Positions 33,966 through 47,325 of a stretch of DNA of 64,000 bases are shown piece by piece. Position numbers and translations under genes: made by a program. Within the stretch, counting starts at the first letter, position 1; the number at the start of each line of letters is the position of its first letter. The notes under the pieces are model-generated. The model saw only the letters and a program-made list of their open reading frames with translations, searched no databases and was not told where the DNA came from. The DNA is from Kiritimatiellia bacterium. Lineage in GTDB: Bacteria > Verrucomicrobiota > Kiritimatiellia > CAIQIC01 > Lenti-01. The DNA is taken from NCBI GenBank assembly GCA_040768005.1, contig JAXGNL010000001.1, positions 7,008 through 71,007 of the forward strand, in the 5' to 3' direction.

Positions 33966-34080
33966 CCTGATTCACCCACGACACAAGGTTGTGGGGGGCT
34001 GCGGGCGGGAGGGGCCGCGAAAAGCTGACCTGATTCATCCGCGGGACAAGCCAGCGGGGTGTGAGGGCGGTTTTCGCGCC

Positions 34081-34212
34081 AAAACAGCAAAAAAATGCAT
34101 AAAATTGGCCAAAATGGCCAGAAATGGGGGGCAAAATGGCCAAAAAGCCATAAAATGGCCCAAAATGGCGGTATTTTTGCGATTCATTGAAAAAAATCAT
34201 GAAAATTGGGTC
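34081..34212. repeat. helically phased A-tract / AAAATGGCC iteron-like array
   Basis: A-tracts start at 34081, 34089, 34101, 34111, 34122, 34133, 34142, 34152, 34162, 34190 and 34202. The core is five to six degenerate AAAATGGCC units with a ~10 bp period. Confidence 0.75.
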
Positions 34213-34350
34213 TTTATAAGTCAATCATTACAATTGTTCTTCCTTTTTATATAATTCATAATATACTGCAATACATAAAGATGCGGACATAAATCTAGGT
34301 GTTGAACATCTTGTGGAATTCTAGCAGTAATATAATATTGCGTCATGGTC

Positions 34351-34379
34351 TTGACATCAGTGCGGTATTCTGATACTGT
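34351..34379 (+). promoter_or_regulatory. candidate sigma70-type promoter of the R-M operon
   Basis: TTGACA (34351-34356), 17 nt, TACTGT (34374-34379), ending 8 nt before the ATG at 34388. This would give a near-leaderless transcript. No SD is visible. Confidence 0.3.
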
Positions 34380-34387
34380 GTTGGACA

Positions 34388-34969
34388 ATGAAAGTTCGAG
34401 ATGTCAGTGAAATCCGCACGGGGCACGGCTTCCGGGAACGGCTCCAGAGCCAGCCGGAAGGCGAGTATCGGGTGATCCAGCCGAAAAACATCGGCATGAA
34501 TGGACTGGTTTCTTTCGACAAGGGGGAGCCGTTGCGGATGGATGCGGTTGCGCCGAGGGTTCTGCGTCCGAAAGAGGTTCTATTGCTCAACCGCGGTCGT
34601 TTTTGCGCGGCCGTTTTCGAGCCGGAGGATGCCGGGCCATGGATTGTGCCGTCCTCGGTGCTAGTCCTGACCCTGAAGTCGGACCGGGTGCGGCCGGACT
34701 ACGTGGCGTGTTTTTTCAATTCCGCCCATGGGCAGGCGCTGCTGCAACGCCATTGCGAGCAGACCACGGTGCCGTACATCAGTGCGCAGACGCTGGGCGA
34801 CATCGAGATGCCGGTGCCCTCACTGGTCCGCCAGGATGCGCTGGTGGCGTTGGACCGGGCGGCCGCGAAGCAGGCGCGCCTGTTCGGCCGGAAGCAGGAA
34901 TTGATCCGGCAGATTTTGAACCATGAATTGACGAGCACGATGCAAGCGACAACCGGGAGCGAGCCATGA
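34388..34969 (+). CDS. hsdS: half-size type I restriction specificity subunit (single target-recognition domain)
   Basis: 193 aa with one TRD-like region followed by an S-subunit conserved helix (PVPSLVRQDALVALDRAAAKQARLFGRKQELIRQIL). ATGA overlap with hsdM. Confidence 0.6.
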   Translation: MKVRDVSEIRTGHGFRERLQSQPEGEYRVIQPKNIGMNGLVSFDKGEPLRMDAVAPRVLRPKEVLLLNRGRFCAAVFEPEDAGPWIVPSSVLVLTLKSDRVRPDYVACFFNSAHGQALLQRHCEQTTVPYISAQTLGDIEMPVPSLVRQDALVALDRAAAKQARLFGRKQELIRQILNHELTSTMQATTGSEP

Positions 34970-36483
34970 AAGAACCGAAGGCCTACAGCCAGGACCAATT
35001 GAACCAGACCCTGTGGGATGCCGCGAACTCCTCCCGGGCCAACGTGGATGCCGCAATCTACAAGGACTATGCCCTGCTGTTTCTGTTCTACAAATACATC
35101 AGCGATCTCCACAAGCACGAGGTGGAGAAACTGGCGAAGCGGTACGGGAAGGACCAGGACCGGATCGCCATGCGCCTGAAAAAATTCCGTTTTGTGCTGC
35201 CGAAGGGAACGAGTTTCGCGGAGGTGTACAAGAAAAAGAGCGAGGACAACATCGGCGAACTGATCAACATCGCCCTGCATGCCATAGAAGACGCCAACGG
35301 CGACCGGCTGGAAGGGCTGGTGTCGATCGACTTCAACTCCGATGCGGTGCTGGGGCGGACCGAGCAGCGCAACAAGATGCTCCGGAATCTGATGGACAGT
35401 TTCGCCAAGATGGATCTGACGCTGGCGGGCGATGACGTGATCGGCAACGCCTACATGTACATGATCGAGCGGTTCGGGTCCGATGCCGGGAAAAAGGCGG
35501 GGGAGTTCTTCACGCCGCATTCCGTGGCGGCGCTGGTGGCGAAACTGGCCGCGCCGCGGCCCGGCTGGCGCATCTGCGATCCGGCCTGCGGGTCGGGCGG
35601 CCTTCTGCTGCTGGCGGGAGCCGAAATCGAGGCGCAGGGGTCGAAGGATTACGCGCTCTACGGGCAGGAAAGCATCGGGTCCACCTACAACCTCGCCCGG
35701 ATGAACATGTTCCTGCACGGCAAGGATTCGGCGCGCCTGGAATGGGGCGACACGCTGAATCATCCGCTCCTCAAAGAGGGCGATTCGCTGATGAAGTTCG
35801 ACCTGGTGCTGGCCAATCCGCCCTTCTCGCTGAAAAAATGGATGGGGGACAGCACCGAGAACGACCCGTACAACCGCTTCCACCGCGGCCTGCCGCCGAA
35901 AACCAAGGGCGACTATGCGTTCATCAGCCACATGGTCGAGACGGCCAAGGCCGGGGAAGGCAAGGTGGTGGTGATTGTGCCGCACGGGGTGCTGTTCCGC
36001 GGGGCCGCCGAAGGCCGGATCCGGAAGTGCCTGCTGGAGGAAAACCTGGTGGATGCGGTGATCGGCCTGCCGTCGAACCTCTTCCAGACGGCCGCCATTC
36101 CCGTCGCCATCCTGATCCTCGACCGGTCCCGGGAGGCGGGCGGCAGGAACGAAAAGCGCAAGGATGTCCTGTTTGTCGAAGCCTCCAGGCTCTTCAAACC
36201 CGGGAAGGCCCGGAATTATCTGGAGCCGGAGCACATCGCCCGGATTCTGGACGTGGTGCGGAAGCGGAAGGATGTCGAAAAGCTCTGCCGCGTGGTTCTG
36301 CCGGAGGAAATCCAGGAAAACGACTACAACCTCAACATCACCCGCTATGTGGACACCTTCGAGGAAGAGGAGGCGGTGGACATCAAAGCCAATCTGAGGG
36401 AACTGGTCCAAATCGATGCCGAACTGAAGGTGCTGGAAAAGGAAATGGCCGGGCATCTCAAAGCGCTGGGGCTGGTGAATTGA
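34966..36483 (+). CDS. hsdM: type I restriction-modification system DNA methyltransferase subunit
   Basis: HsdM N-terminal domain (YKDYALLFLFYKYISD), AdoMet motif ICDPACGSGGLLL, catalytic LANPPFS. Confidence 0.9.
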   Translation: MKEPKAYSQDQLNQTLWDAANSSRANVDAAIYKDYALLFLFYKYISDLHKHEVEKLAKRYGKDQDRIAMRLKKFRFVLPKGTSFAEVYKKKSEDNIGELINIALHAIEDANGDRLEGLVSIDFNSDAVLGRTEQRNKMLRNLMDSFAKMDLTLAGDDVIGNAYMYMIERFGSDAGKKAGEFFTPHSVAALVAKLAAPRPGWRICDPACGSGGLLLLAGAEIEAQGSKDYALYGQESIGSTYNLARMNMFLHGKDSARLEWGDTLNHPLLKEGDSLMKFDLVLANPPFSLKKWMGDSTENDPYNRFHRGLPPKTKGDYAFISHMVETAKAGEGKVVVIVPHGVLFRGAAEGRIRKCLLEENLVDAVIGLPSNLFQTAAIPVAILILDRSREAGGRNEKRKDVLFVEASRLFKPGKARNYLEPEHIARILDVVRKRKDVEKLCRVVLPEEIQENDYNLNITRYVDTFEEEEAVDIKANLRELVQIDAELKVLEKEMAGHLKALGLVN

Positions 36484-36484
36484 A

Positions 36485-36624
36485 CCGCAGAGGACGCCAA
36501 GGAACGCAGAGGAATTTAAGAGGGTTGTCACAATGAAAAAACAACGGCATGGAACCTCCGCGGGCCTCTGCGCCCTCTGCGGTGGAAGAGGATAACCGCT
36601 GAGGACGCCAAGGAAGGCTGAGGG
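36485..36624. repeat. REP-like hairpin repeats (ACGCAGAGG-type 9-mers), left flank of the GxxExxY cassette
   Basis: Forward CCGCAGAGGACGCCAAGGAACGCAGAGG (36485-36512), reverse CCTCCGCGGGCCTCTGCGCCCTCTGCGG (36555-36582), forward CCGCTGAGGACGCCAAGGAAGGCTGAGGG (36596-36624). A ~70 bp homolog lies at 37007-37077. Confidence 0.7.
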
Positions 36625-36627
36625 AAG

Positions 36628-37092
36628 ATGATGAAAGAGCTTACGGGTCAGATTATTGCTGCAGCAATGAAGGTGCATTCGCAGTTGGGTCCGGGACTTC
36701 TGGAATCGGCATATGAGGCGTGTCTGGAGTATGAACTCAAGAAACAGAGGCTGAACGTTGAGCGGCAGAAGTTATTGCCGGTAGTCTATGACGAGGTGAA
36801 GCTGGATTGCGGTTACCGAATTGACCTGCTGGTTCAGAATCAGGTCGTTCTGGAATTGAAGGCAGTCGATCAAGTGGCACCCATTCACGAGGCCCAGCTT
36901 CTTTCCTATCTGAAGATGTCAGGCTGTCAGGTTGGGCTTCTCATCAACTTCAATGTTCTGCATCTGCGGGATGGCATCAAACGCCTTGTGAACCAATATA
37001 CAGAATCTCCGCGAACCTCTGCGTCCTCTGCGGTGGAAGAAGTTGAACCGCCGGGGACGCAGCGGAGCGCAGAGGGGGGGGGATTGCGATGA
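36628..37092 (+). CDS. GxxExxY protein (PD-(D/E)xK nuclease superfamily)
   Basis: GLLESAY is the GxxExxY motif. YRIDLLVQNQVVLELKAV is a D..ExK-like core. The C-terminal tail (ESPRTSASSAVEEVEPPGTQRSAEGG) is encoded by the right-hand hairpin repeat. Confidence 0.8.
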   Translation: MMKELTGQIIAAAMKVHSQLGPGLLESAYEACLEYELKKQRLNVERQKLLPVVYDEVKLDCGYRIDLLVQNQVVLELKAVDQVAPIHEAQLLSYLKMSGCQVGLLINFNVLHLRDGIKRLVNQYTESPRTSASSAVEEVEPPGTQRSAEGGGLR

Positions 37093-38063
37093 GTAAAAAA
37101 CCGACTGATATTGTTCTCTACAAGAGCCGGGATGGCTCTGTTCAGCTGGATGTGCAGATGGAAGAGGAAACCGTTTGGCTTTCCCAAAAGCAAATGGCTC
37201 AGCTTTTCGGCAAAGACACCGATACGATCGGCCTTCATATTCGTAACGCTTATAAAGAGAGGGAGTTGGATGAGTTAGCAACTGCCGAGGAATCCTCGGT
37301 AGTTCGGCGGGAGGGAAACCGGAAGGTCACTCGTAAAATCCGCTTTTACAACCTGGATGTCATTATTTCCGTGGGCTACCGTGTGAACTCCAAGCGCGGC
37401 ACGGAATTCCGGATCTGGGCCACGAACATCCTCAAACAACACCTGGTGCAGGGCTACAGCGTCAATGAAAAGCGCTTGAAGGCCCTGAAGCAGACCCTGA
37501 AGCTGGCGTCCGACATCACCAAGCGCAACCTCCTTTCCGGCGATGAAGCGGCCGCCCTCCTGCAAACGGTGACCGAATATGCCTATGCGCTGGACCTGCT
37601 GGACGATTACGACCACCAACGGGTGGTCCTCCGCAAGACCTCGCCCCGCCCGGCAAAGCCGGTGACCTATGAGGAGGTGATGAGCCTGGTCGAACAGATG
37701 CGGGTACATTTCGGTGATTCGGCGGTGTTCGGACGGGAAAAAGACCGGAGCCTGCACAGTTCGCTGAATGCGGCGATGCAGGGGTTCGGCGGCAAGGACC
37801 TGTACCCCTCGGTCGAAGAAAAGGCCGCCCATCTTCTCTACTTCCTGGTGAAGAACCACAGTTTTGTGGACGGCAACAAGCGCATCGCCGCCGCCGTGTT
37901 CCTGCGCTTCGCGGAAAAGAACAAGCTGCTTTACGGCCAAGAGGGCCAAAAACGCATCGCCGACAACGCCCTCGTCGCCATGACCCTCATGATCGCCGAA
38001 AGCAAGCCCAAGGAAAAAGACGTCATCACCGCCATGGTCACCAACCTGATTGCGGGGAAATGA
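37089..38063 (+). CDS. RhuM-like N-terminal domain fused to a Fic/Doc domain
   Basis: N-terminus VWLSQKQMAQLFGKDTDTIGLHIRNAY...ISVGYRVNSKRGTEFRIWATNILKQ (RhuM family). C-terminus HSFVDGNKRIAAAVF (Doc-type HxFxDGNKR motif). ATGA overlaps on both sides. Confidence 0.75.
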   Translation: MSKKPTDIVLYKSRDGSVQLDVQMEEETVWLSQKQMAQLFGKDTDTIGLHIRNAYKERELDELATAEESSVVRREGNRKVTRKIRFYNLDVIISVGYRVNSKRGTEFRIWATNILKQHLVQGYSVNEKRLKALKQTLKLASDITKRNLLSGDEAAALLQTVTEYAYALDLLDDYDHQRVVLRKTSPRPAKPVTYEEVMSLVEQMRVHFGDSAVFGREKDRSLHSSLNAAMQGFGGKDLYPSVEEKAAHLLYFLVKNHSFVDGNKRIAAAVFLRFAEKNKLLYGQEGQKRIADNALVAMTLMIAESKPKEKDVITAMVTNLIAGK

Positions 38064-39397
38064 GCGAGTCAATGCAAGGACGGGTTCAACTGATGCCTCC
38101 TAACGCCATGCCGGGATTCAGGAAAACAAAGGTGGGGTGGATTCCAGAGGGATGGGTGCACTCGGTAATCGGTGAAGCAACGCATTACCTGACCAGTGGC
38201 TCTCGTGGGTGGTCGCAATACTACAATAATACAGGTGAACTGTTTGTACGGATCACGAATCTAACCCGAGAGGCTATCCGTTTGGACTACGCTGATTGTT
38301 GCTTTGTGAAACTGCCATCCGGCACCAGCGAGGGTACTCGAACTCGTCTTAAGGCTGGTGACATACTGATATCCATCACAGCGGATCTTGGCATTATTGC
38401 ATATTTCTCTTCGGAAGAGCCGTACCCGCTTGCATATGTAAACCAGCATGTGGCCTTGCTAAGACTTTATGATAAAAACATTAGCTCCAAGTTCGTTGCT
38501 TATCAACTTGCGGCCCCTCATGCGCAGCGCCGTTTTCAGGAAATCACAGATCAGGGAGCAAAAGCTGGACTGAATCTGGCCTCAATTAGGTCGTTTCCCG
38601 TAGTTCTCCCCTCCCTCCCCGAGCAGGAGGCGATAGCGGGGGTGCTGGAGTGCTGGGACAAGGCGATTCGGGGGGGTGAGCGGAAGATCGAGAAAAAGCG
38701 GCAGGTCAAGAAGGGGTTGATGCAGCAGCTCCTCAGCGGCCAACGCCGTTTGCCGGGGTTCAAGGGGAAGTGGGGAGAAGTGAAACTGGGGGATATTGCG
38801 GCACCCATCAAAACAGTGGTCGGTGAAAAGGTCGTCACGCCGATGAGTTTGTCAGCTGGGATCGGCTTTGTGCCTCAGGAAACGAAATTCGGCAAGGACA
38901 TTTCAGGGGCCCAGTATCAACGCTATACGCTGCTGACCAAAGGGTGCTTTGCTTACAACAAGGGGAATTCGAAAAAGTATCCTCAGGGGTGCATCTATCT
39001 GCTCGAAGAGCATGATGAAGTGGCGGTTCCGAATGTCTTTGTATGCTTCAAACTGGACCCTTCTGCGGCTGTCGATGAGTATTTCCGCCAAGTGTTCTTA
39101 GCCAACATGCATGGGCCCGCGCTTGTGCGTTTTATCAACAGTGGTGTCCGCAACAACGGACTATTGAATCTTACCGCCTCGAATTTCTTTCAGATCAAGC
39201 TGCCGTTGCCGCCCCTGCCCGAGCAACGCGCCATTGCGGCGGTTTTATCGGCGGCGGATGCGGAAATTGCGGCGTTGGAGCGGAAGCTGGGGGCATTGCG
39301 GGAGCAGAAGCGGTTTTTGCTGAACAACCTGGTGACGGGGGCGATCCGGTTGCCGGCCTTCTGCCGCCGTCGCACGCACCGCAAGGAACGAAAATGA
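38060..39397 (+). CDS. hsdS: type I restriction specificity subunit (two target-recognition domains)
   Basis: 445 aa. Two TRDs are separated by conserved helices LPSLPEQEAIAGVLECWDKAI and LPLPPLPEQRAIAAVLSAADAEIAALERKL. Confidence 0.9.
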   Translation: MSESMQGRVQLMPPNAMPGFRKTKVGWIPEGWVHSVIGEATHYLTSGSRGWSQYYNNTGELFVRITNLTREAIRLDYADCCFVKLPSGTSEGTRTRLKAGDILISITADLGIIAYFSSEEPYPLAYVNQHVALLRLYDKNISSKFVAYQLAAPHAQRRFQEITDQGAKAGLNLASIRSFPVVLPSLPEQEAIAGVLECWDKAIRGGERKIEKKRQVKKGLMQQLLSGQRRLPGFKGKWGEVKLGDIAAPIKTVVGEKVVTPMSLSAGIGFVPQETKFGKDISGAQYQRYTLLTKGCFAYNKGNSKKYPQGCIYLLEEHDEVAVPNVFVCFKLDPSAAVDEYFRQVFLANMHGPALVRFINSGVRNNGLLNLTASNFFQIKLPLPPLPEQRAIAAVLSAADAEIAALERKLGALREQKRFLLNNLVTGAIRLPAFCRRRTHRKERK

Positions 39398-41190
39398 CCT
39401 CGCGAAGCACACCGAACAAACTGACGCGCGCCGATTTGTTGGATGCGGCCGGGCCGGTATACTTCGCGCGGGGCGAGGGCTACCATGCCGCGGGGGCGGT
39501 GCAGGCGGTGCGCGAGCGGAACGGGGTGGTGCGCGCCACGGTCCGGGGCGCACAGGCGTACAAGACGACGCTGGCGTTTATCGACGGTCACGTGGATGGC
39601 CACTGTTCGTGCCCCTTGGGGCGGGACGGCGAGTTTTGCAAGCACCTGGTGGCAACGGGCCTGGCCTGGATGGCGGAACAGGCCGGCGGCGAGGCGGCAA
39701 CGGAGGAGACCCGGTCCGTCACGCCGAAAGAGATCGAGGCGTATCTGTTGAAGCTGAAACGGCCGGAGCTGGTGCGGTTGGTGATGGAGCAGGCGGATCA
39801 GGACGATGATTTCCATGCCATGCTCAAGCTGCGGGTGGCGGCCGCCGGGGCGTCGTCGGACACAAAGGAAATGCGGCAGGTGCTGCGTCAGGCGATGACG
39901 ATCCGGGGCTTTGTGGAATGGCGCGGGACGGGCGCATACACGCGCAGGGTGGACCGGGTGCTGGATCAGCTTCGCACGATGCTGACGCCCCGGCACGCGG
40001 CGGCGGTGATCGAGCTGGCGGAATACGGTCTGGATTTATGGGAGAAGAACATCGAGCGAATCGATGATTCGGACGGCTGCATGGGGATGATCCGCGACGA
40101 GTTGCATGAGCTTCATCTGGAGGCCTGCCGCCTGGCCCGGCCGGACCCGGTCGCCTTGGCGGACCGCCTGACCCGGCGCGCCATCGAAACCCACTGGGAC
40201 ATGTTTCATGGGTTTGCCGACACCTACCGGGAGATTCTGGGGGAGGCGGGCCGGGCGCGGCATCGCGAGATTGTCGAAGCGGAGTGGGATGCCCTGCCCA
40301 CGCTGGCGCCGGGCGAGGAAGACCCGGAATGCTTTGGCCGCACCGGCACGATCGAGAACATGATGCTGGCGATGGCGGAAGAAGAAAAGGACTTGGATTG
40401 GATCATCCGCGTTCTCAGCCGGGACCTCTCCAGCTCGTATGACTATCTTCGGATTGCGCAACGCTGCCGCGAGGCGCGCCAATATGCGCTGGCGCGCGAC
40501 TGGGCGGAACGGGGCCTGGCGGCGGCCCTCGACCTCCGCACGTCCGACCTCCGGAGTTTCCTGGCGGAGGAATATCTGCGCGCCAAGCGTCCCGATGATG
40601 CGATGGCCATGGTCTGGGCCAATTTCGAGGGGCGGCCCGATTTGAAAACCTATCAGGATCTCGCCGCGCTGGCGCAGAAGCTGAAGGGCTGGGAAGATTG
40701 GCGGCCGAAGGCGTTTGCGCACATCCGCCAGACGATCCAGGCCGCCAAGAGCAAGCATGAACGGCAAGCGGATGGCCATTCGGCCGGGGGGCGCGGCGCC
40801 GCCTTTCGCTGGGTTCCTCCGGCGCCGGACCATTCGTTGCTGGTGGCGGTTTTGCTGTGGGAGAAGCGGGAGGAGGAGGCGTGGGAGGAAGCGCAAGCGG
40901 GAGGCTGCGCGGATCACTTGTGGCTGGACCTGGCCCAACGCCGGGAGGAGAAGCATCCGGCCGATGCCGCCGGGATTTATCGCCGACTGGTGAAGCCCTT
41001 GATTGAGGCGGGCAACAATCCGGCATACGAACAGGCGGTTGTGTTTCTGGGACGGGCCCATGGGCTCATGAAGACGCTGGGCCAGGAAGCGGAGTTTCGC
41101 GTGTGGTTGCTGCAACTCAAGGTTGAATACCGGCGCAAGCGCAATTTCATCAAATATGTCGAGCGCACGCCATGGGGGAAGGGCGCGTGA
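39394..41190 (+). CDS. SWIM zinc-finger protein with a large C-terminal helical domain
   Basis: SWIM signature HCSCPLGRDGEFCKHLVA (CxC...CxH) near the N-terminus, followed by ~480 aa of helical-repeat-like sequence. ATGA overlap with the hsdS stop. Confidence 0.75.
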   Translation: MTSRSTPNKLTRADLLDAAGPVYFARGEGYHAAGAVQAVRERNGVVRATVRGAQAYKTTLAFIDGHVDGHCSCPLGRDGEFCKHLVATGLAWMAEQAGGEAATEETRSVTPKEIEAYLLKLKRPELVRLVMEQADQDDDFHAMLKLRVAAAGASSDTKEMRQVLRQAMTIRGFVEWRGTGAYTRRVDRVLDQLRTMLTPRHAAAVIELAEYGLDLWEKNIERIDDSDGCMGMIRDELHELHLEACRLARPDPVALADRLTRRAIETHWDMFHGFADTYREILGEAGRARHREIVEAEWDALPTLAPGEEDPECFGRTGTIENMMLAMAEEEKDLDWIIRVLSRDLSSSYDYLRIAQRCREARQYALARDWAERGLAAALDLRTSDLRSFLAEEYLRAKRPDDAMAMVWANFEGRPDLKTYQDLAALAQKLKGWEDWRPKAFAHIRQTIQAAKSKHERQADGHSAGGRGAAFRWVPPAPDHSLLVAVLLWEKREEEAWEEAQAGGCADHLWLDLAQRREEKHPADAAGIYRRLVKPLIEAGNNPAYEQAVVFLGRAHGLMKTLGQEAEFRVWLLQLKVEYRRKRNFIKYVERTPWGKGA

Positions 41191-42203
41191 ACGCGGCGAC
41201 GTACGATCCGCAGATTCATCATCGCCGGTCCATTCGGTTGAAGGGGCATGATTATGCCGGGGGCGGGGTGTATTTCGTGACGATTTGCGCGCATCGGGAG
41301 TTCATCGGATGGGCGGGGGGCCATCCATTTGGCGGAGGGGCGGAACGCATTCCGTCCTCTTCCGGGGCGACATGCGAGTCGCGTTCTGCTGGGGCGACAT
41401 GCGTGTCGCCCGTACGGGAGATGATTGTGGATGAATGGCGGCGTTGCGGCATGATTCGCGATGATGTATTTCCCGGCGAATTCGTGGTGATGCCGGATCA
41501 TGTGCATGGATTGATTCGCATTCGGAAGGGGCCGTCCGAATTGGGGCATGTCATCGGCGCATTCAAAGCCGCCGCATCCCGCCGCATCCGTAGGGGCGAC
41601 ACGCCTGTCGCCCGCCCGCCTGTCGCCCCATTTGCCACGCCGCCCCGGAAGATCCGCATCTGGCATCGCAATTATTATGAGGCCATCGTCCGCACGCCGG
41701 AGGCGGCGGAGAAGATTGCCGGGTATATCCGCATGAATCCGTGGCGGTGTGTCACGGATTTCGGCGACGGCCTGCGCGGCATGGGGAACCCGGCGTTGTG
41801 GAATCTGCCCAAGCTGGGGGTTTTGTGCAGCCGCAATGCGCCGCGCCCGGAAAGCCTGCCCGCCGCCGCCGTCTATTTCGGGGGATTCCATTCGCCGATG
41901 GAGAAGGACCTCTTTGGCCGGTTGCTGGAGCGGAAGCAGCCGCTGATCTGGTGTCCCGCCTGGGGGCTGGAGCATGCGGCGTTCGCGCCCGGGGTGCTCG
42001 AAGCCCTCGAACAGAACCGGATGCTCCTTCTCGAAATGCGCAACCGCGACGGCGATCTGGCCGCCGCCGAAGAGCGCAACCGGTTTGTGATTGAGAATGC
42101 CGATGCGCTGTGGCTGCCGCATGTCGCGCCCGGGGGGATGCTCGACCGGCTGATGACTGCACTTGATGCGCACGGCAAAACCCTGGGAGAACCATCCTCA
42201 TGA
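41172..42203 (+). CDS. HUH/Y1 (RAYT/IS200-like) nuclease domain fused to a DprA/SLOG-like domain
   Basis: N-terminal half: HDYAGGGVYFVTICAHRE, HUH motif MPDHVHGLI, Tyr motif WHRNYYEAIVR. C-terminal half: GVLCSRNAP...VYFGGFHSPMEKDLFGRLLERKQPLIWCPAWGL...ERNRFVIENADALWLPHVAPGG resembles DprA-like Rossmann proteins. The start overlaps the SWIM gene by 19 nt, and the stop forms an ATGA overlap with hsdR. Confidence 0.55.
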   Translation: MGEGRVNAATYDPQIHHRRSIRLKGHDYAGGGVYFVTICAHREFIGWAGGHPFGGGAERIPSSSGATCESRSAGATCVSPVREMIVDEWRRCGMIRDDVFPGEFVVMPDHVHGLIRIRKGPSELGHVIGAFKAAASRRIRRGDTPVARPPVAPFATPPRKIRIWHRNYYEAIVRTPEAAEKIAGYIRMNPWRCVTDFGDGLRGMGNPALWNLPKLGVLCSRNAPRPESLPAAAVYFGGFHSPMEKDLFGRLLERKQPLIWCPAWGLEHAAFAPGVLEALEQNRMLLLEMRNRDGDLAAAEERNRFVIENADALWLPHVAPGGMLDRLMTALDAHGKTLGEPSS

Positions 42204-45200
42204 GCGAGACGCCACGAACTCACATCGGCGATGCGGCGGATGTCGCCCGCGCCTCACTGGACCTGCCGGATTTCGACGAGGCGTCGGTTTCCCAGATCCC
42301 GGCGTTGCTGGAGCTGGTGAACCTGGGGTACACGTATCTGCCGCGGGCGGACGTCGCGAGCATGCGGGAAAGCGCGTCGCAATATGTGCTGCGGGATATC
42401 GCTTTCGCGGCGCTGCGCCAGATCAACGGGGAGAACATCTCGGACAAGAGCATCCGCGATGCGGTATTCGAAATGGAGCAGATCCATCTGGGCGGCGGGG
42501 TGTTCCGCGCCTCGGAGGAAGTGTATGCGCTGCTGCTGGCGGGCCGGTCGGTGCCGGAGCTGGCCGGGGGGCGGCGGGTGTCGCCGCAGATGCGGTTTGT
42601 GGATTTCCGGGAGCCGGAGAACAACGCGTTCCATGTCTGCGCGGAATTCGAGATCGCCGAGGGGCATGACCGTCGGCTGGACATCGTTCTTTTCGTGAAC
42701 GGGTTTCCGTTCGCGGTGATCGAGAACAAGAAGGAGTCGGTGAAGGTTGGCGAGGCGGTGGCGCAGATGGTGCGGAACCAGGGGCGGAACGAGACGCCGA
42801 AGTTCTTCCTGTTCCCCCAGATTCTCGTGGCGACCAACGTGCGGGAGCTGAAATACGGGACGATGCTGACGCCGGCGCGGTTTTATGCGCAGTGGAAGGA
42901 GAAGGATGCCGATCCCCAGGTGGTGGATGCGGCGGTGGCGGCGGTGATCCACAAACCGGTGGCCCCGGAGGTGGTGCGGCGGATTGCCGGCGACCTGATC
43001 CGGCAGGAGTATGTGCCGCCGGAGGCGCGGACGGTGACGGAGCAGGATCGGGGCATCCACGGCCTGCTGCGCCCGGAGCGCCTGCTGGATCTGGTGCGGA
43101 ACTTCATTCTCTACGACAACAACGTCAAGAAAATCGCCCGGTATCCGCAGGTTTTCGCGATCAAAAAGGCCATGAGAGGGCTGAAGACCTTCGACCGGAA
43201 CGGGCGTCGCAAGGGCGGGCTGATCTGGCATACGCAGGGCTCGGGGAAAAGCCTGACGATGGTGATGCTGGTGAAGTGCCTGATCGATGATCCGGAGATC
43301 GTGCTGCCGCGCGTGGTGGTGGTGACGGACCGGCGGGACCTGGACCGGCAGATCAGCGACACCTTCGCGGCCTGCAACATCAAGAAGGACGTGGTGCGCA
43401 CGCGGAGCGCCAAGGAACTGCTGCGCCTGATCCGGGACAAGGACCAGCGGGTCGTTACGGCCCTGATCCACAAGTTCGAAGCCTCGAAGGCGGAGCGGGA
43501 CTTTGTGGATGACGACCCGAACCTCTTCATCCTGATCGACGAAGCGCACCGGACCCAGGGCGGGCAGGCGAATACAGAATTGAACCTGATTTTGCCCAGG
43601 GCCTGCCAGATCGGATTTACGGGCACGCCGCTGATGAAAAAGGAGAAGGTCAAGGGCCGGAAGGGCCCGGCCCACGTGGTCAAGGCCAGCGAGCGCAAGT
43701 TCGGGGGGATCATCGACGCCTACACGATCTCCGAAGCGGAGGCGGATGGCGTGGTGCTCCCGCTGATCTATCAGCCGCGGTTCGTGGAGCAGACGGTCCA
43801 GCAGGCGCTGCTGGACCGGTTTTATGACCAGATCACCCGGGAGCTGACGGACAAGCAGAAGAAGGATTTGCAGAAGAAGTTCAATTCGTCCCAGATCGTG
43901 GAGGAGACGTCCCAGCGGATCGAGACGATTTCATTGGACATTCTGGAACATTTTCGCCCGTTCCGGAACACCGGGCTGAAGGCCCAGATCGTGGCGCCGT
44001 CCAAATACGCGGCGGTGATGTTCCGGAAGGCCTTCGACCTGCTGGGGGAAGACGCGGTCGAGGTGATCATTTCGGACACGGCGGACCAGGAGACGGACGA
44101 TCAGCTTCCGGCGCACAAACGGGAGGTGGCGGAATGGCTGGAGGAGGAAAAGCACCGGCACGGCGCCTCGCTGGAGGCCCGCGAGAAAAAGCTGATCAAG
44201 GAGTTCCGGGACAATCCCGAGGGCGTACGCATGCTGATCGTGGTGGACAAGCTGCTGACCGGGTTTGATGCGCCGCGCAATTCCTTCCTGTATCTGGCGA
44301 AACAGCTCAAGGACCACAATCTCCTGCAGGCGATCGCGCGAGTGAACCGCCTGTTCGACGGGGACGAAGGCCATGAGGCCAAGGTCAACGGGTTCGTGAT
44401 CGATTATTCCAAGAACGCAAAAAATCTGCGCGATGCGATGGAGCTGTTCTCCAGCTACGACCCGGAGGACGTGGACGGGGCGCTGCTGAACACCGGGGAG
44501 AAGATCCGGGAGCTGGAGCGCGTGGTCCAGGATTTGCATGCGATGTTCAATGGCGTCCGGGACAAACGGGATACCGAGGCGTATGTCCGGGTGCTGGAAG
44601 AAAGCGTGGTGGCGCGCGAGCGGTTCTACGAGCTGGTGAACGAGTTCATCAAGCAGTTCGCGACCTGCCGGATGCTGCCCGACTTCGCGCAGCAGTTCCC
44701 GGCCGACAAGCTGCACCGGTATCAGAGCGACCTGAAGAAGTTCGTGGAGTTGAAGAAAATCCAGAAAATCAAGAACGCGGAAGAAATCGATTTCTCGAAG
44801 TACGAGGACCAGATCCGGCGGATTCTGGACAAGTATGTTTCCTCGGAATACGTGATCGAGCTGTCCCGGCCCCTGTTGATCCGGGAGTCCCGGGAGTTCA
44901 ATGCCTACATCGAGAATGCGGAGCGCGGGCTTTCGGACAAATCGAAGGCGGAGGCCATTGCCGCCCAAACCCAGCGGACCATCCGCGAGAATCTCCACCG
45001 GGATCCCGAATTCTACAGGCGGTTCAGCGAAAAGATCGAAAAGCTGATTGCCGATCTCCGGGCGGCCAAGAAAGAAGACCTGAAGGCGCTCTTGGAACGC
45101 GCCCGGGATGTCCAGGGAAGGGTTGCTGCCTATGAGGCGAACGACATTCCGGTGGCGATCCGGCGACAGACGGCGCTGCACCCGTTTTATCGCAGCCTCC

Positions 45201-45457
45201 AGTCCGGACTGAAGGCCCATGCGGTGCCGGAAGAGCGGCTTTGCGAGATGACCCAGGCCATGGCCGGGCGGATTGAGCCGCACAAGATCGTGGATTGGTG
45301 GCAGAACATCGAGGTGGAACGGCAGGTGCGGACGGATCTGGAGGATTACCTGTTTGATGTGGTGAAAGAGAAAATCGGCATTCCTCTGTCCGCCGGGGAA
45401 ATTGAACGGCTGACCTCGAAGGTCTGGGAGCTGGCCGTGGAGAACCGGTCGCCATGA
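42200..45457 (+). CDS. hsdR: type I restriction enzyme R subunit
   Basis: 1085 aa. PD-(D/E)xK-like RLDIVLFVNGFPFAVIENKK, helicase motifs WHTQGSGKSLTMV and ILIDEAHRTQGG, and VVDKLLTGFDAP. Confidence 0.9.
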   Translation: MSETPRTHIGDAADVARASLDLPDFDEASVSQIPALLELVNLGYTYLPRADVASMRESASQYVLRDIAFAALRQINGENISDKSIRDAVFEMEQIHLGGGVFRASEEVYALLLAGRSVPELAGGRRVSPQMRFVDFREPENNAFHVCAEFEIAEGHDRRLDIVLFVNGFPFAVIENKKESVKVGEAVAQMVRNQGRNETPKFFLFPQILVATNVRELKYGTMLTPARFYAQWKEKDADPQVVDAAVAAVIHKPVAPEVVRRIAGDLIRQEYVPPEARTVTEQDRGIHGLLRPERLLDLVRNFILYDNNVKKIARYPQVFAIKKAMRGLKTFDRNGRRKGGLIWHTQGSGKSLTMVMLVKCLIDDPEIVLPRVVVVTDRRDLDRQISDTFAACNIKKDVVRTRSAKELLRLIRDKDQRVVTALIHKFEASKAERDFVDDDPNLFILIDEAHRTQGGQANTELNLILPRACQIGFTGTPLMKKEKVKGRKGPAHVVKASERKFGGIIDAYTISEAEADGVVLPLIYQPRFVEQTVQQALLDRFYDQITRELTDKQKKDLQKKFNSSQIVEETSQRIETISLDILEHFRPFRNTGLKAQIVAPSKYAAVMFRKAFDLLGEDAVEVIISDTADQETDDQLPAHKREVAEWLEEEKHRHGASLEAREKKLIKEFRDNPEGVRMLIVVDKLLTGFDAPRNSFLYLAKQLKDHNLLQAIARVNRLFDGDEGHEAKVNGFVIDYSKNAKNLRDAMELFSSYDPEDVDGALLNTGEKIRELERVVQDLHAMFNGVRDKRDTEAYVRVLEESVVARERFYELVNEFIKQFATCRMLPDFAQQFPADKLHRYQSDLKKFVELKKIQKIKNAEEIDFSKYEDQIRRILDKYVSSEYVIELSRPLLIRESREFNAYIENAERGLSDKSKAEAIAAQTQRTIRENLHRDPEFYRRFSEKIEKLIADLRAAKKEDLKALLERARDVQGRVAAYEANDIPVAIRRQTALHPFYRSLQSGLKAHAVPEERLCEMTQAMAGRIEPHKIVDWWQNIEVERQVRTDLEDYLFDVVKEKIGIPLSAGEIERLTSKVWELAVENRSP

Positions 45458-46188
45458 CGGCGGAACTGTCGAGTACCGGGGTGCCCATCCGCCAGTTGAC
45501 GTTTGACCATCACGCGCTGGACTATTGCCTGATCCGGGAGGACCGGAAAACCCTGTCGGCAACGGTATTTCCGAGCCGGGTCCTGCTGGTGAAGGCCCCG
45601 CGGGAGGTCCAAGACGCGCGTATCGACGACTTTCTGCACCGGAAACTGTGCTGGATCCTGAAACAGCAGCGCTATTTTGCCCAGTTCAAGATTCCGGGGA
45701 AGAAACAATATGTGAGCGGAGAGACCTTCCGGTACCGGGGGCGGGGCTACAAGCTGCTGGTTCGCAGGGGGGGGGCGGAGGAACGGGTGTCCTTGCGGCA
45801 CGGGGTGTTGACGGTATTCACGACGTCGACCGGCACCCCGTCCCATGTGAAGGGGTTGCTGGACCGATGGTATGCGGAACGGGCCCGGCACGTATTCGGC
45901 GAGCGGCTGGCGGTTTGCTCGGGGCTCTTTGATTATGAGGAGACACCCGGCCTGGTGATTCGCAAGGCGACCCGGCGGTGGGGCAGCTTTTCCCGCAAAA
46001 CCCGGCGGATCATGCTGAACCTGGATTTGATCAAGGTGGCGGCCCGATATCTGGACTATGTCATCATCCATGAGTTGTGCCATGTGGCGCACAAGAACCA
46101 CGATGGGGCCTTTTACCGCCTCATGGAATCGAAGCTCCCGCAATGGGAGAAGCTCAAGACCGAGCTGGAGCTGAATCTGTTTGGCTGA
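45454..46188 (+). CDS. YgjP-like (DUF45/M48-type) zinc metallopeptidase
   Basis: WGSFSRKTRRIMLNLDLIKVAARYLDYVIIHELCHVAHKNH (HExxH). A common accessory gene of type I R-M loci. ATGA overlap with the hsdR stop. Confidence 0.75.
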   Translation: MTAELSSTGVPIRQLTFDHHALDYCLIREDRKTLSATVFPSRVLLVKAPREVQDARIDDFLHRKLCWILKQQRYFAQFKIPGKKQYVSGETFRYRGRGYKLLVRRGGAEERVSLRHGVLTVFTTSTGTPSHVKGLLDRWYAERARHVFGERLAVCSGLFDYEETPGLVIRKATRRWGSFSRKTRRIMLNLDLIKVAARYLDYVIIHELCHVAHKNHDGAFYRLMESKLPQWEKLKTELELNLFG

Positions 46189-46227
46189 AACGGGGTGGTT
46201 TCCCGGTGCCATAACCATGAATGGGGG

Positions 46228-46686
46228 CTACAGTCCGCGGGGAAGCGTGTCGAAACCGGGGCGGGGGTGGCCGCAGTGGAGGCAGGCGGCACGGTGGACG
46301 CTGAGGGGTTTCCCGCAGGCGGGGCAGGCCCAGCGGATTTTTTCGCGGGCGACGAACGCTCGCAGGCCGGCGTCGCGGATGGAGGCGAGATTGTCGAGCA
46401 TGCTCATGCCGTAGCGGGTGCGGTAGCGTTTGTCCAAATCGCGGAGGCGTCGGCAGGGGTAGTCGGGGCAACGGAAGCAGAACCGGTTGGGCCGGCCTTG
46501 CCGGGTGCAGAGCTTGATGGTGCATTGGCGGCAGGCGCCGGCCTTGATCTGATCATCGCGGTGGTTGCAGCCCGGGCACCGGTTTTTCTCCCGGAGGTGG
46601 CCGATGCACAGCGCGCAGTTCATGCCGCAGGGGGCGATCATCGCCGCCTGGATGGGCCGGAGCCGGATGGGGGGCCGTCGGGTCAT
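46228..46686 (-). CDS. Cys-rich DUF3795-like protein
   Basis: 152 aa from MTRRPPIRLRPIQAAMIAPCGMNCALCIGHLREKNRCPGCN..., with many CxxC pairs. The start at 46686 forms an ATGA overlap with the stop of 46683..47021. It lies inside the longer track ORF 46228..47244. Confidence 0.45.
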   Translation of the reverse strand: MTRRPPIRLRPIQAAMIAPCGMNCALCIGHLREKNRCPGCNHRDDQIKAGACRQCTIKLCTRQGRPNRFCFRCPDYPCRRLRDLDKRYRTRYGMSMLDNLASIRDAGLRAFVAREKIRWACPACGKPLSVHRAACLHCGHPRPGFDTLPRGL

Positions 46687-47021
46687 GTGGCCTTCCTCCT
46701 GGGCTTCTTTTTCGCGCCGGGCGGGGGCAGGTCGCGTGCAGTGGCCCGGACGAGGCCGGCGATCCAGTCGCGGTCCTCGAAGGCGTCCTCGATCAGGAAG
46801 TAGTCCTTGGCCCCGGGATAGGGCGGGGCTTCCGTGACATGGCCGATGAAGGCGCGGCCGGCGGGGGTGGGCTTGATGAACAGCTGGTTGTCGCACACGA
46901 GTGCCACGACCTTGCCGTTGCAGTAGAGCGCGTATTCGCCGAACATCTTGCGGAACGAGATGTCGCCCGCCTCCGCCATCTGGTCCGCCAGAAATTCCAT
47001 GAAGCTTGAATCGGTTGCCAT
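46683..47021 (-). CDS. TfoX N-terminal domain family protein
   Basis: FMEFLADQMAEAGDISFRKMFGEYALYCNGKVVALVCDNQLFIK resembles the TfoX/Sxy N-terminal domain. Confidence 0.55.
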   Translation of the reverse strand: MATDSSFMEFLADQMAEAGDISFRKMFGEYALYCNGKVVALVCDNQLFIKPTPAGRAFIGHVTEAPPYPGAKDYFLIEDAFEDRDWIAGLVRATARDLPPPGAKKKPRRKAT

Positions 47022-47116
47022 GGGACCTCCCGTCTTGGAAGATCAGTGTACGGGACGGGAGGCGGGGAGGGAAAGGGGATTTCGGGTTTGTCTGGACGGA
47101 CGAATTGAAACCCCAA

Positions 47117-47315
47117 CCACGGATGGGCGGATCAACCCTTGCCGATGCGCCCGGCGGGCGCGCTGGAACAAGAGAACAGCCGGCTACGGATTTCACGGAT
47201 GATACGGATTCAACCCATAGGTGCCTGTAGCGAATCCGGTTCATCCGTAGCTGAACCGGGTCCCCGCCGGTTATTCCGGGCGGATCCGTCTGTGTTGATC
47301 CGTGTCCATCCGTGG
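47117..47315. repeat. inverted-repeat-bounded non-coding element (REP/MITE-like)
   Basis: CCACGGATGGGCGGATCAAC (47117-47136) is the near reverse complement of GTTGATCCGTGTCCATCCGTGG (47294-47315). Internal copies of the (C/T)ACGGAT motif, or its complement ATCCGT(A/G), occur as CTACGGATTTCACGGATGATACGGATTC and TCATCCGTAGC. Confidence 0.55.
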
Positions 47316-47325
47316 TTGTCTTGTT

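Follow-up and report, generated by a model that had tools for sequence, protein, structure and literature searches.

A RAYT–DprA-like fusion gene recurrently linked to type I restriction-modification operons in Kiritimatiellia

A type I restriction-modification (R-M) operon of a Kiritimatiellia bacterium (GenBank assembly GCA_040768005.1) holds, between hsdS and hsdR, a gene whose product joins a RAYT-type nuclease domain to a predicted DprA-like domain. The operon lies in a stretch of 64,000 nucleotides (contig JAXGNL010000001.1, positions 7,008 to 71,007), hereafter termed the window, to which all coordinates given without a locus name refer. The fusion gene, gene 2 (41172–42203, plus strand; 343 amino acids), was assigned to the RAYT (TnpA_REP)–DprA-like type by homology and fold, and is preceded by gene 1 (39394–41190, plus strand; 598 amino acids), which encodes a SWIM finger followed by a TPR-like solenoid and matches PDC-S62 and DUF6880. 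The first-pass annotation of this DNA had proposed that the two genes form an undescribed defence module. On balance, and with modest confidence, we favour the reading that gene 2 encodes a domesticated RAYT–DprA enzyme that acts on single-stranded DNA (ssDNA) and is linked to type I R-M, and that gene 1 is a separate nested accessory of the PDC-S62 family. What is new in gene 2 is the fusion of a DprA-family domain to a RAYT together with the recurrent type I R-M link, whereas gene 1 is already catalogued.

The N-terminal half of gene 2 (41172–41750, plus strand) was identified as a Y1-HUH nuclease domain by homology, by Foldseek and by comparison with the classification of TnpA_Y1 proteins (PMC6006769). 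A structure model built from a 107-sequence alignment, with a predicted local distance difference test (pLDDT) value of 81.6 overall and above 90 for the C-terminal domain, matched the RAYT structure 4er8 and the IS200/ISDra2/IS608 TnpA structures 2xm3, 2f4f and 2vih in the PDB with a Foldseek probability of 1.0. The HUH motif PDHVH, comprising H110 (41499–41501) and H112 (41505–41507) on the plus strand, had been described as apparently intact within PDHVHGLI, and it is indeed invariant in the 107 homologues and kept in 70 of 71 translations obtained from the homologous loci. Likewise, Y185 (41724–41726) is kept in 70 and N189 (41736–41738) in all 71 of these translations, and the catalytic and DprA-motif residues taken together are kept in 69 to 71 of them. 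Y185, located in the sequence IAGYIRMNPW, aligns with the catalytic Y132 of ISDra2 TnpA, and its distance to N189 agrees with the RAYT motif YIxxNP, whose Asn, four residues after the Tyr, serves as the third metal ligand (PMC6006769). The catalytic Tyr had formerly been sought in WHRNYYEAIVR; however, WHRNYYE represents the conserved W/beta4 motif, and the catalytic residue is Y185 in YIRMNP. Since the catalytic residues are conserved, gene 2 is not a decaying transposase, a possibility that had been raised at the outset.

Gene 2 also differs from IS200/IS605 elements, as it lacks flanking subterminal hairpin ends, overlaps both neighbouring genes and shows the Tyr motif YIRMN instead of Y---Q. 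In line with the initial remark that no transposon ends are visible, a repeat search of the island revealed none flanking gene 2; that remark nevertheless overlooked a pair of REP-like inverted repeats within the gene, which is described below.

For the C-terminal half of gene 2 (41751–42203, plus strand), direct sequence searches of Pfam (E ≤ 10), NCBIfam and the PDB yielded no DprA match. By fold, the best PDB match of this half is ShosA (8zva), followed by the DprA structures 3maj, 4ljl, 3uqz and 5mll (Foldseek probability 1.0). Moreover, an exhaustive phmmer search with residues 194–343 recovered, besides the fusion family, many standalone proteins of 160–250 amino acids with E values of 1e-8 to 1e-14. 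Several of them pass PF02481; P0287 (E 2.6e-13) and P0298 (E 3.0e-12) do so with 42–44 bits at a cut-off of 29.6. A search with a profile built from the standalone proteins yielded more than 2400 proteins, of which almost all belong to PF02481 and many are named DprA. The motifs LCSR, GGFHSPME, CPA(W/R)G, RN(R/x)F and PGG, which read LCSR, GGFHSPME, CPAWG, RNRF and PGG in gene 2, are common to gene 2 and these relatives. Because the fold, the transitive sequence link and the common motifs agree, the early guess of a DprA/SLOG resemblance proves correct, although the direct match to PF02481 by which it was to be checked is absent and the connection runs via the standalone intermediates. Judged by the modelled fold and this two-step link to PF02481, the C-terminal half is thus predicted to be a DprA-like Rossmann domain.

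This domain comprises only the Rossmann core of about 150 amino acids and lacks the SAM and winged-helix domains of canonical DprA. It matches DprA/Smf (PF02481) in the Rossmann-type fold and in the motif order xSR, RNR, PGG, but has GGFHSPME where DprA has SGxAxGID, is fused to a nuclease and has no direct Pfam or PADLOC match. ShosA, the best-matching fold, binds DNA as one half of a toxin-antitoxin pair that acts in defence (PMC11961720), and ShosA as well as two sampled standalone relatives of the domain sit in defence loci. Unlike ShosTA, however, the gene 2 operon contains no ShosT phosphoribosyltransferase, and gene 2 gave no ShosA profile match in PADLOC.

The standalone GGFHSPME proteins constitute a subfamily of their own, with a length of about 210 amino acids, more than 2400 members and a PF02481 match, of which two loci were sampled. 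In the first (L179, 6001–6627) the gene lies among a PLD–SNF2 helicase, an MmeI/Eco57I-type methyltransferase and a large AAA_30/UvrD_C helicase, in a DISARM-like/type IIG locus, and in the second (L180, 5641–6288) it lies within a toxin-antitoxin cluster. These proteins may represent a defence-linked DprA subfamily. In addition, four relatives with a short DprA-like domain from outside the Kiritimatiellia family (P0299, P0284, P0320 and P0292) have an N-terminal sequence of the RAYT type (SLRLKGWDY…, WHRNYWD), and to judge from these sequences the RAYT–DprA fusion may extend beyond this one lineage.

The pair of repeats within gene 2 consists of the REP-like elements H1 (41392–41417, minus strand), a hairpin GGGCGACA-TGCG-TGTCGCCC with a GTAC foot on the minus strand, and H2 (41588–41613, plus strand), a CCGTAG foot with a hairpin GGGCGACA-CGCC-TGTCGCCC. 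Together they form the strongest inverted repeat of the island (26 nucleotides, 92% complementary); their feet, GTAC and GTAG, point inward, and each arm is itself a hairpin of the type GGGCGACA-N4-TGTCGCCC. They are the sole hairpins of this kind in the window, where 0.02 would be expected, and an Rfam scan of genes 1 and 2 gave nothing credible. Across 80 loci of the gene 2 family, the motif occurs 111 times inside family genes (1.36 per kb, 52 loci) compared with 19 times (0.021 per kb) in 895 kb of flanking DNA, which corresponds to an approximately 64-fold enrichment. A GTAnG foot is present on one side of 89 of the 113 hairpins found in these loci and the window within, or no more than 30 nucleotides from, family genes.

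At both conserved sites the stems covary: about 95% of the stem cells pair, as opposed to 32–56% when the partners are slid, and there are 10–16 stem cells with a double change, a value reached in 0 of 500 shuffles. H1 encodes the peptide G-A-T-C-V-S-P-V-R and H2 the peptide R-R-G-D-T-P-V-A, hence in two different frames, and both peptides fall into low-confidence, disordered loops of the gene 2 model. Family members differ freely in the peptides encoded at these sites (DTHVA, EACLA, DILIA, GILPA); what is selected, or repeatedly renewed, is therefore the hairpin as nucleic acid. The idea that such hairpins are a wholly new phenomenon was rejected, as in-frame REP insertions in tnpA_REP genes have been described as typical of RAYT subclass 2.4 (PMC6006769). 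By analogy with that subclass, the internal pair is most likely the cognate site of the gene 2 enzyme itself, inserted in frame into surface loops. Possible roles of the pair are autoregulation and gene conversion among paralogues.

Both elements reside in an exchangeable middle cassette of gene 2 (41300–41657, plus strand). In the sibling strains (L001–L006), which carry the same operon, this segment is replaced by a strongly divergent one (L001, 10129–10466). The borders of the cassette are sharp and lie inside conserved motifs, and its flanks are identical in the siblings and about 85–89% identical in the closely related locus L014 described below. Family-wide, two cassettes were found, namely type A, which bears REP-like hairpins and is present in the window, and type B (VHEYIAGVKAG...), which is devoid of them and is carried by the sibling strains and L014. 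As far as can be judged from sequence comparison, this pattern suggests gene conversion between paralogues. A connection between cassette type and nesting in R-M operons was considered and discarded (type A 16 of 38, type B 7 of 23).

The homologues of gene 2 comprise more than 4000 proteins, all from Kiritimatiellia and allied metagenome-assembled genomes of the Planctomycetes–Verrucomicrobia–Chlamydiae (PVC) group, and occupy at least 545 loci in species-representative genomes, with several per genome. The locus statistics rest on the best 80 of these at least 545 loci. Type I hsd genes were present in 28 of the 80, 26 of which were detected by jackhmmer and two more by tblastn, and the immediate neighbours of the gene 2 homologues include 15 HsdS. 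Nesting occurs in at least four operon layouts (hsdS|g2|hsdR; hsdM..g2|hsdS..hsdR; hsdR..hsdS|g2|hsdM; shortS|hsdM..g2|hsdS|hsdR|ygjP), and the HsdM proteins of operons bearing gene 2 range from 26% to 97% identity. Gaps of at most 10 nucleotides were found upstream of gene 2 in 18 of 25 R-M loci versus 9 of 27 other loci, and downstream in 15 of 25 versus 7 of 29. The nested members do not form a single R-M-specific clade, a possibility that we rejected because they are spread over different parts of the tree (p about 0.07 in a nearest-neighbour test). The distances between gene 2 sequences correlate moderately with those between the accompanying hsdM and hsdR genes (Mantel r 0.47 and 0.50, respectively). 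A PADLOC scan of the neighbours was uninformative, as it was swamped by HsdS models.

Directly adjoining the gene 2 homologues in five loci, each of which has type I hsd genes, we observed a further protein family of about 190 amino acids (L007, 792–1385; L012, 1410–1991; L023, 7941–8528; L051, 7404–7985; L065, 1038–1607), which is absent from the window. It is neither a standalone DprA-like domain nor an HsdS fragment, as it has no Pfam match and falls outside the hsdS set.

The multi-copy nature of the family and its dispersal over many unrelated contexts would also be expected if gene 2 were a selfish or formerly mobile RAYT/IS200-like element that spreads or persists by gene conversion, gathers in R-M islands because these are addictive and often exchanged, and has no role in defence. 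The mosaic exchange of cassettes between paralogues in one species and the REP-like sites inside the gene fit this explanation, and mobility-associated proteins are known as a minor class of embedded genes (10.1101/2024.01.29.577857). Nevertheless, we consider it unlikely. Apart from the missing transposon ends, the 4-nucleotide overlaps on both sides of gene 2 recur in many operons, and both domains are under strong purifying selection. Unlike the near-identical copies of IS200/IS605 elements, the paralogues are only 42–76% identical, and no relatives were found on viral contigs. Finally, about one third of the copies sit in one operon type, which is far above what a transposase would show.

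A closely related genome allows the association with the R-M enzyme to be viewed from another side. The flanks of the window are 91–96% identical at the DNA level to the metagenome-assembled genome of Kiritimatiellae bacterium SV3-B9.1 (L014), the clpB and fprA proteins of which are about 97% identical to those of the window. In L014 the orthologue of gene 2 (7983–9076) stands alone between clpB and fprA and starts 6 nucleotides after the clpB stop codon. By comparison with positions 33966–47325 of the window, the 13-kb R-M island, the SWIM gene and the DUF3795 and TfoX_N genes are all absent from this interval, and the right-hand junction in L041 is the same as in L014. Between clpB and fprA/gatC there is thus a variable hot spot whose constant element is gene 2. 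Because L014 keeps gene 2 alone, gene 2 depends on neither the R-M enzyme nor gene 1.

This constancy at a site where R-M genes come and go would likewise suit a recombination or DNA-uptake factor that modulates restriction, either by protecting or processing incoming ssDNA or by driving the exchange of hsd modules at the hot spot. A gene with TfoX_N, which forms the N-terminal part of the competence regulator TfoX, is located within the same variable island, next to a DprA-like protein; furthermore, hsdS often adjoins gene 2, and the C-terminal domain of gene 2 belongs to the DprA family. In Helicobacter pylori, DprA alleviates the restriction barrier to incoming DNA (PMC3597690), and ShosA has been proposed to promote homologous recombination (PMC11961720). 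We nonetheless regard a role of this kind as decidedly improbable, since the SAM and winged-helix domains of canonical DprA are missing, evidence for competence of these bacteria is lacking, an HUH nuclease plays no part in the known DprA pathways, and the repeat search of the island found no hsdS repeats hinting at shuffling.

Gene 1 turned out to be less novel than first thought. The residues of its SWIM finger, C71, C73, C82 and H84 (39604–39645), are invariant in 39 homologues; the Pfam SWIM match is weak and that to DUF6880 is significant. In an AlphaFold model (pLDDT 86.9), a small N-terminal domain of sheet and helix leads into a solenoid made up entirely of helices, in agreement with the CxC...CxH finger and long helical domain originally described, and a Foldseek search with this model returned nothing but generic TPR proteins and ZSWIM8. 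As the model and Foldseek show only SWIM- and TPR-like parts, the protein is predicted to be a scaffold or sensor without a catalytic domain. The view that it is undescribed had to be abandoned, since it matches the PADLOC candidate PDC-S62 from end to end (residues 5–590, E 1.4e-50). The PDC families were defined in a survey that applied guilt by embedding to BREX, DISARM and type I R-M systems (10.1101/2024.01.29.577857), and our literature searches found no mention of PDC-S62 by name. Gene 1 is indistinguishable from this family, and its place inside a type I operon is what the survey method would predict. Its homologues spread over many phyla without being accompanied by gene 2; the distant ones stand by themselves, as in Thiocystis, where the gene lies between trpE and trpG. 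By its distribution, PDC-S62 is a single-gene candidate for defence that spans many phyla and, within the PVC group, resides in type I operons.

Do genes 1 and 2 nevertheless act together? According to the original proposal, the SWIM protein and the HUH–DprA protein constitute a single defence module of two genes, through which the type I system gains an arm directed at ssDNA. Both genes are of types that nest in type I operons, they are adjacent and overlapping in the window and its sibling strains, and the pair recurs in two other close lineages, namely L087, where the order is kept, and L088, where it is reversed and only remnants of the R-M genes are left. Beyond these two loci the pair does not recur. 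By tblastn and jackhmmer, a SWIM homologue was found in none of the 80 best gene 2 loci, and conversely only one of 80 metagenomic SWIM loci, the window's own, carried gene 2. Close SWIM homologues are present in type I operons without gene 2 (L089, L090), the near-isogenic L014 has gene 2 alone, and the SWIM gene stands in PADLOC as a single-gene candidate. The co-occurrence test has thus largely refuted the idea of a module, to which we assign a very low probability; to judge from their distribution, genes 1 and 2 are independent nested accessories rather than an obligate pair.

If gene 2 is indeed a domesticated RAYT–DprA enzyme, its DprA-like domain would bind ssDNA, and its HUH/Tyr centre would nick, and possibly rejoin, ssDNA at REP-like hairpins via a 5'-phosphotyrosine intermediate. 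In this way the host or the R-M operon might gain an activity on ssDNA, be it strands that enter by transformation or conjugation, ssDNA phage or replication intermediates. Single-stranded DNA is a substrate beyond the reach of a type I enzyme. Given the role of ShosA, the effect of DprA on restriction in H. pylori and the loci of the standalone relatives, a function of gene 2 in defence or in guarding incoming DNA is plausible by analogy. More specifically, the protein could be an immune or genome-guarding effector in which the DprA-like ssDNA sensor gates the hairpin-specific HUH nuclease, and which type I operons of Kiritimatiellia have recruited repeatedly against single-stranded invaders or replication intermediates, with the in-frame REP pair as a built-in regulatory or decoy site; this extension we put forward as a tentative and rather doubtful possibility.

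Several observations weigh against the view of gene 2 as a domesticated RAYT–DprA enzyme linked to R-M. With regard to the nuclease domain, the match to the NCBIfam model REP_Tyr_transpos (E 5.6e-15) reaches 55.5 bits at a cut-off of 80, and that to Pfam Y1_Tnp 20.7–22.5 bits, below the curated threshold of 23; a precomputed PF01797 match is present in many of the homologues. REP-like hairpins hardly occur beyond the gene, be it in the 64-kb window or in the 895 kb of flanks, which sets it apart from classical RAYT/REP systems. With regard to the link to R-M, the 80 loci are those closest to a query that is itself nested in an R-M operon, so the share of one third may be inflated, and two thirds of the sampled family members lie in varied housekeeping contexts. 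The enrichment near R-M genes would be about 50-fold if hsd-adjacent genes make up less than 1% of a genome, an estimate for which this background was assumed, and the Mantel correlations may reflect mere organismal phylogeny. Gene 2 matches no PADLOC model. Moreover, to judge from the gene content of L014, its function cannot depend on the R-M enzyme.

Among described proteins, the closest to gene 2 are the RAYT subclasses 2.4 and 2.7 (Quentin et al. 2018, PMC6006769), which have the same Y1-HUH fold. Gene 2 conforms to the RAYT motif set, that is [ND]H[VF]H, the W motif and YIxxNP with its Asn ligand; its hairpins are likewise GC-rich with a 5' foot of the GT[AG]G type, and, as in subclass 2.4, in-frame REPs lie in loops of the gene itself, between HuH and Y. 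In contrast, the W motif reads WH rather than WQ, and the fusion to a DprA-family domain occurs in none of the 12 described subclasses (PMC6006769). In addition, the REPs are confined to the gene and, as far as the window and the sampled flanks extend, neither flank it nor populate the genome; a REPtron layout was not seen, as there are no REPs elsewhere in the window. The family further departs from known RAYTs in having several diverged paralogues per genome, with about one third of the sampled copies nested in type I R-M operons. As regards position, gene 2 resembles the nested type I genes PrrC, RloC, RhuM and Fic (Payne et al. 2024 preprint), which share the location between hsd genes, the coupling and the presence of several nested genes per operon; however, a content of HUH plus DprA-like domains is not among the nested systems catalogued there.

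In agreement with the claim of the first-pass annotation that the composition is undescribed, which holds for this fusion, a RAYT–DprA protein is absent from PADLOC and from the TnpA_Y1 classification (Quentin et al. 2018) and was not found in literature searches; nor did these searches find a description of HUH combined with SLOG or of RAYT combined with type I restriction. The host role of RAYTs has been an open question since their first description. The family reported here offers two handles on it, namely the fused, predicted ssDNA-binding DprA-family domain and the recurrent link to type I R-M, and these handles together with the minimal, self-contained set of hairpins make the biochemistry and biology of gene 2 directly testable. 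In addition, it points to a blind spot of guilt-by-embedding surveys, which discard transposase-like genes; in one such survey these were classed as mobility proteins and left out (Payne et al. 2024 preprint). The large family of DprA-like proteins of about 210 amino acids may be defence-linked in the manner of ShosA. Should gene 2 prove to be an effector, this would be the first defined cellular role for a RAYT, and it would define a defence-linked short DprA-like subfamily that includes the standalone GGFHSPME family.

Positions 34388–46188 form a single operon on the plus strand, in which a type I R-M system with intact hsdM, hsdS and hsdR is kept together; unless stated otherwise, its components are on the plus strand. 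It is preceded by an AT-rich leader of the island (33966–34387) bearing a promoter-like site at 34227–34255, the sole one on the plus strand, ahead of the whole operon. The operon begins with a short HsdS-like gene with one target recognition domain (34388–34969; Pfam Methylase_S weak), which is followed by hsdM (34966–36483; N6_Mtase E 1e-95, HsdM_N), an order kept in related operons. Thereafter come a nested PD-(D/E)XK_3 gene (36628–37092), a nested RhuM–Fic/DOC gene (37089–38063) that corresponds to the PADLOC candidate PDC-S23 (E 1e-133), and hsdS with two target recognition domains (38060–39397). Downstream of genes 1 and 2 follow hsdR (42200–45457) and a YgjP-like metallopeptidase (45454–46188), hsdS, hsdR and the latter being assigned by domain matches. 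YgjP-like metallopeptidases are frequent companions of type I R-M systems.

The location of the two genes between hsdS and hsdR with overlapping start and stop codons, as given in the first-pass annotation, was verified. Gene 1 overlaps hsdS by 4 nucleotides (ATGA), gene 2 likewise overlaps hsdR by 4 nucleotides (ATGA), and genes 1 and 2 overlap by 19 nucleotides, or by GTGA if gene 2 starts with the GTG at 41187. Genes 1 and 2 are translationally coupled to hsdS and hsdR. In total, the operon has gathered at least four independent nested accessories (the PD-(D/E)XK_3 gene, the RhuM–Fic gene, gene 1 and gene 2), and besides gene 2 it holds at least two catalogued defence candidates, PDC-S62 and PDC-S23.

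The leader contains six AAAATGGCC-like repeats at a spacing of about 10 nucleotides (34081–34169), and the left part of the island (34000–39400) has a GC content of 0.52–0.60 compared with about 0.65 in the surrounding genome. The low GC content and the leader repeats suggest that the hsdM–hsdS part was recently acquired. Repeats of 29–38 nucleotides of the CCTCTGCG…CGCAGAGG type, both inverted and direct and 79–89% matching, are found on the flanks of the PD-(D/E)XK_3 gene, upstream of it (36484–36512 and 36552–36589) and within its 3' end (37003–37040), and may mark a small mobile or recombinogenic unit. On the minus strand, the right end of the variable island is occupied by a DUF3795-like gene and the TfoX_N gene (46228–47021).

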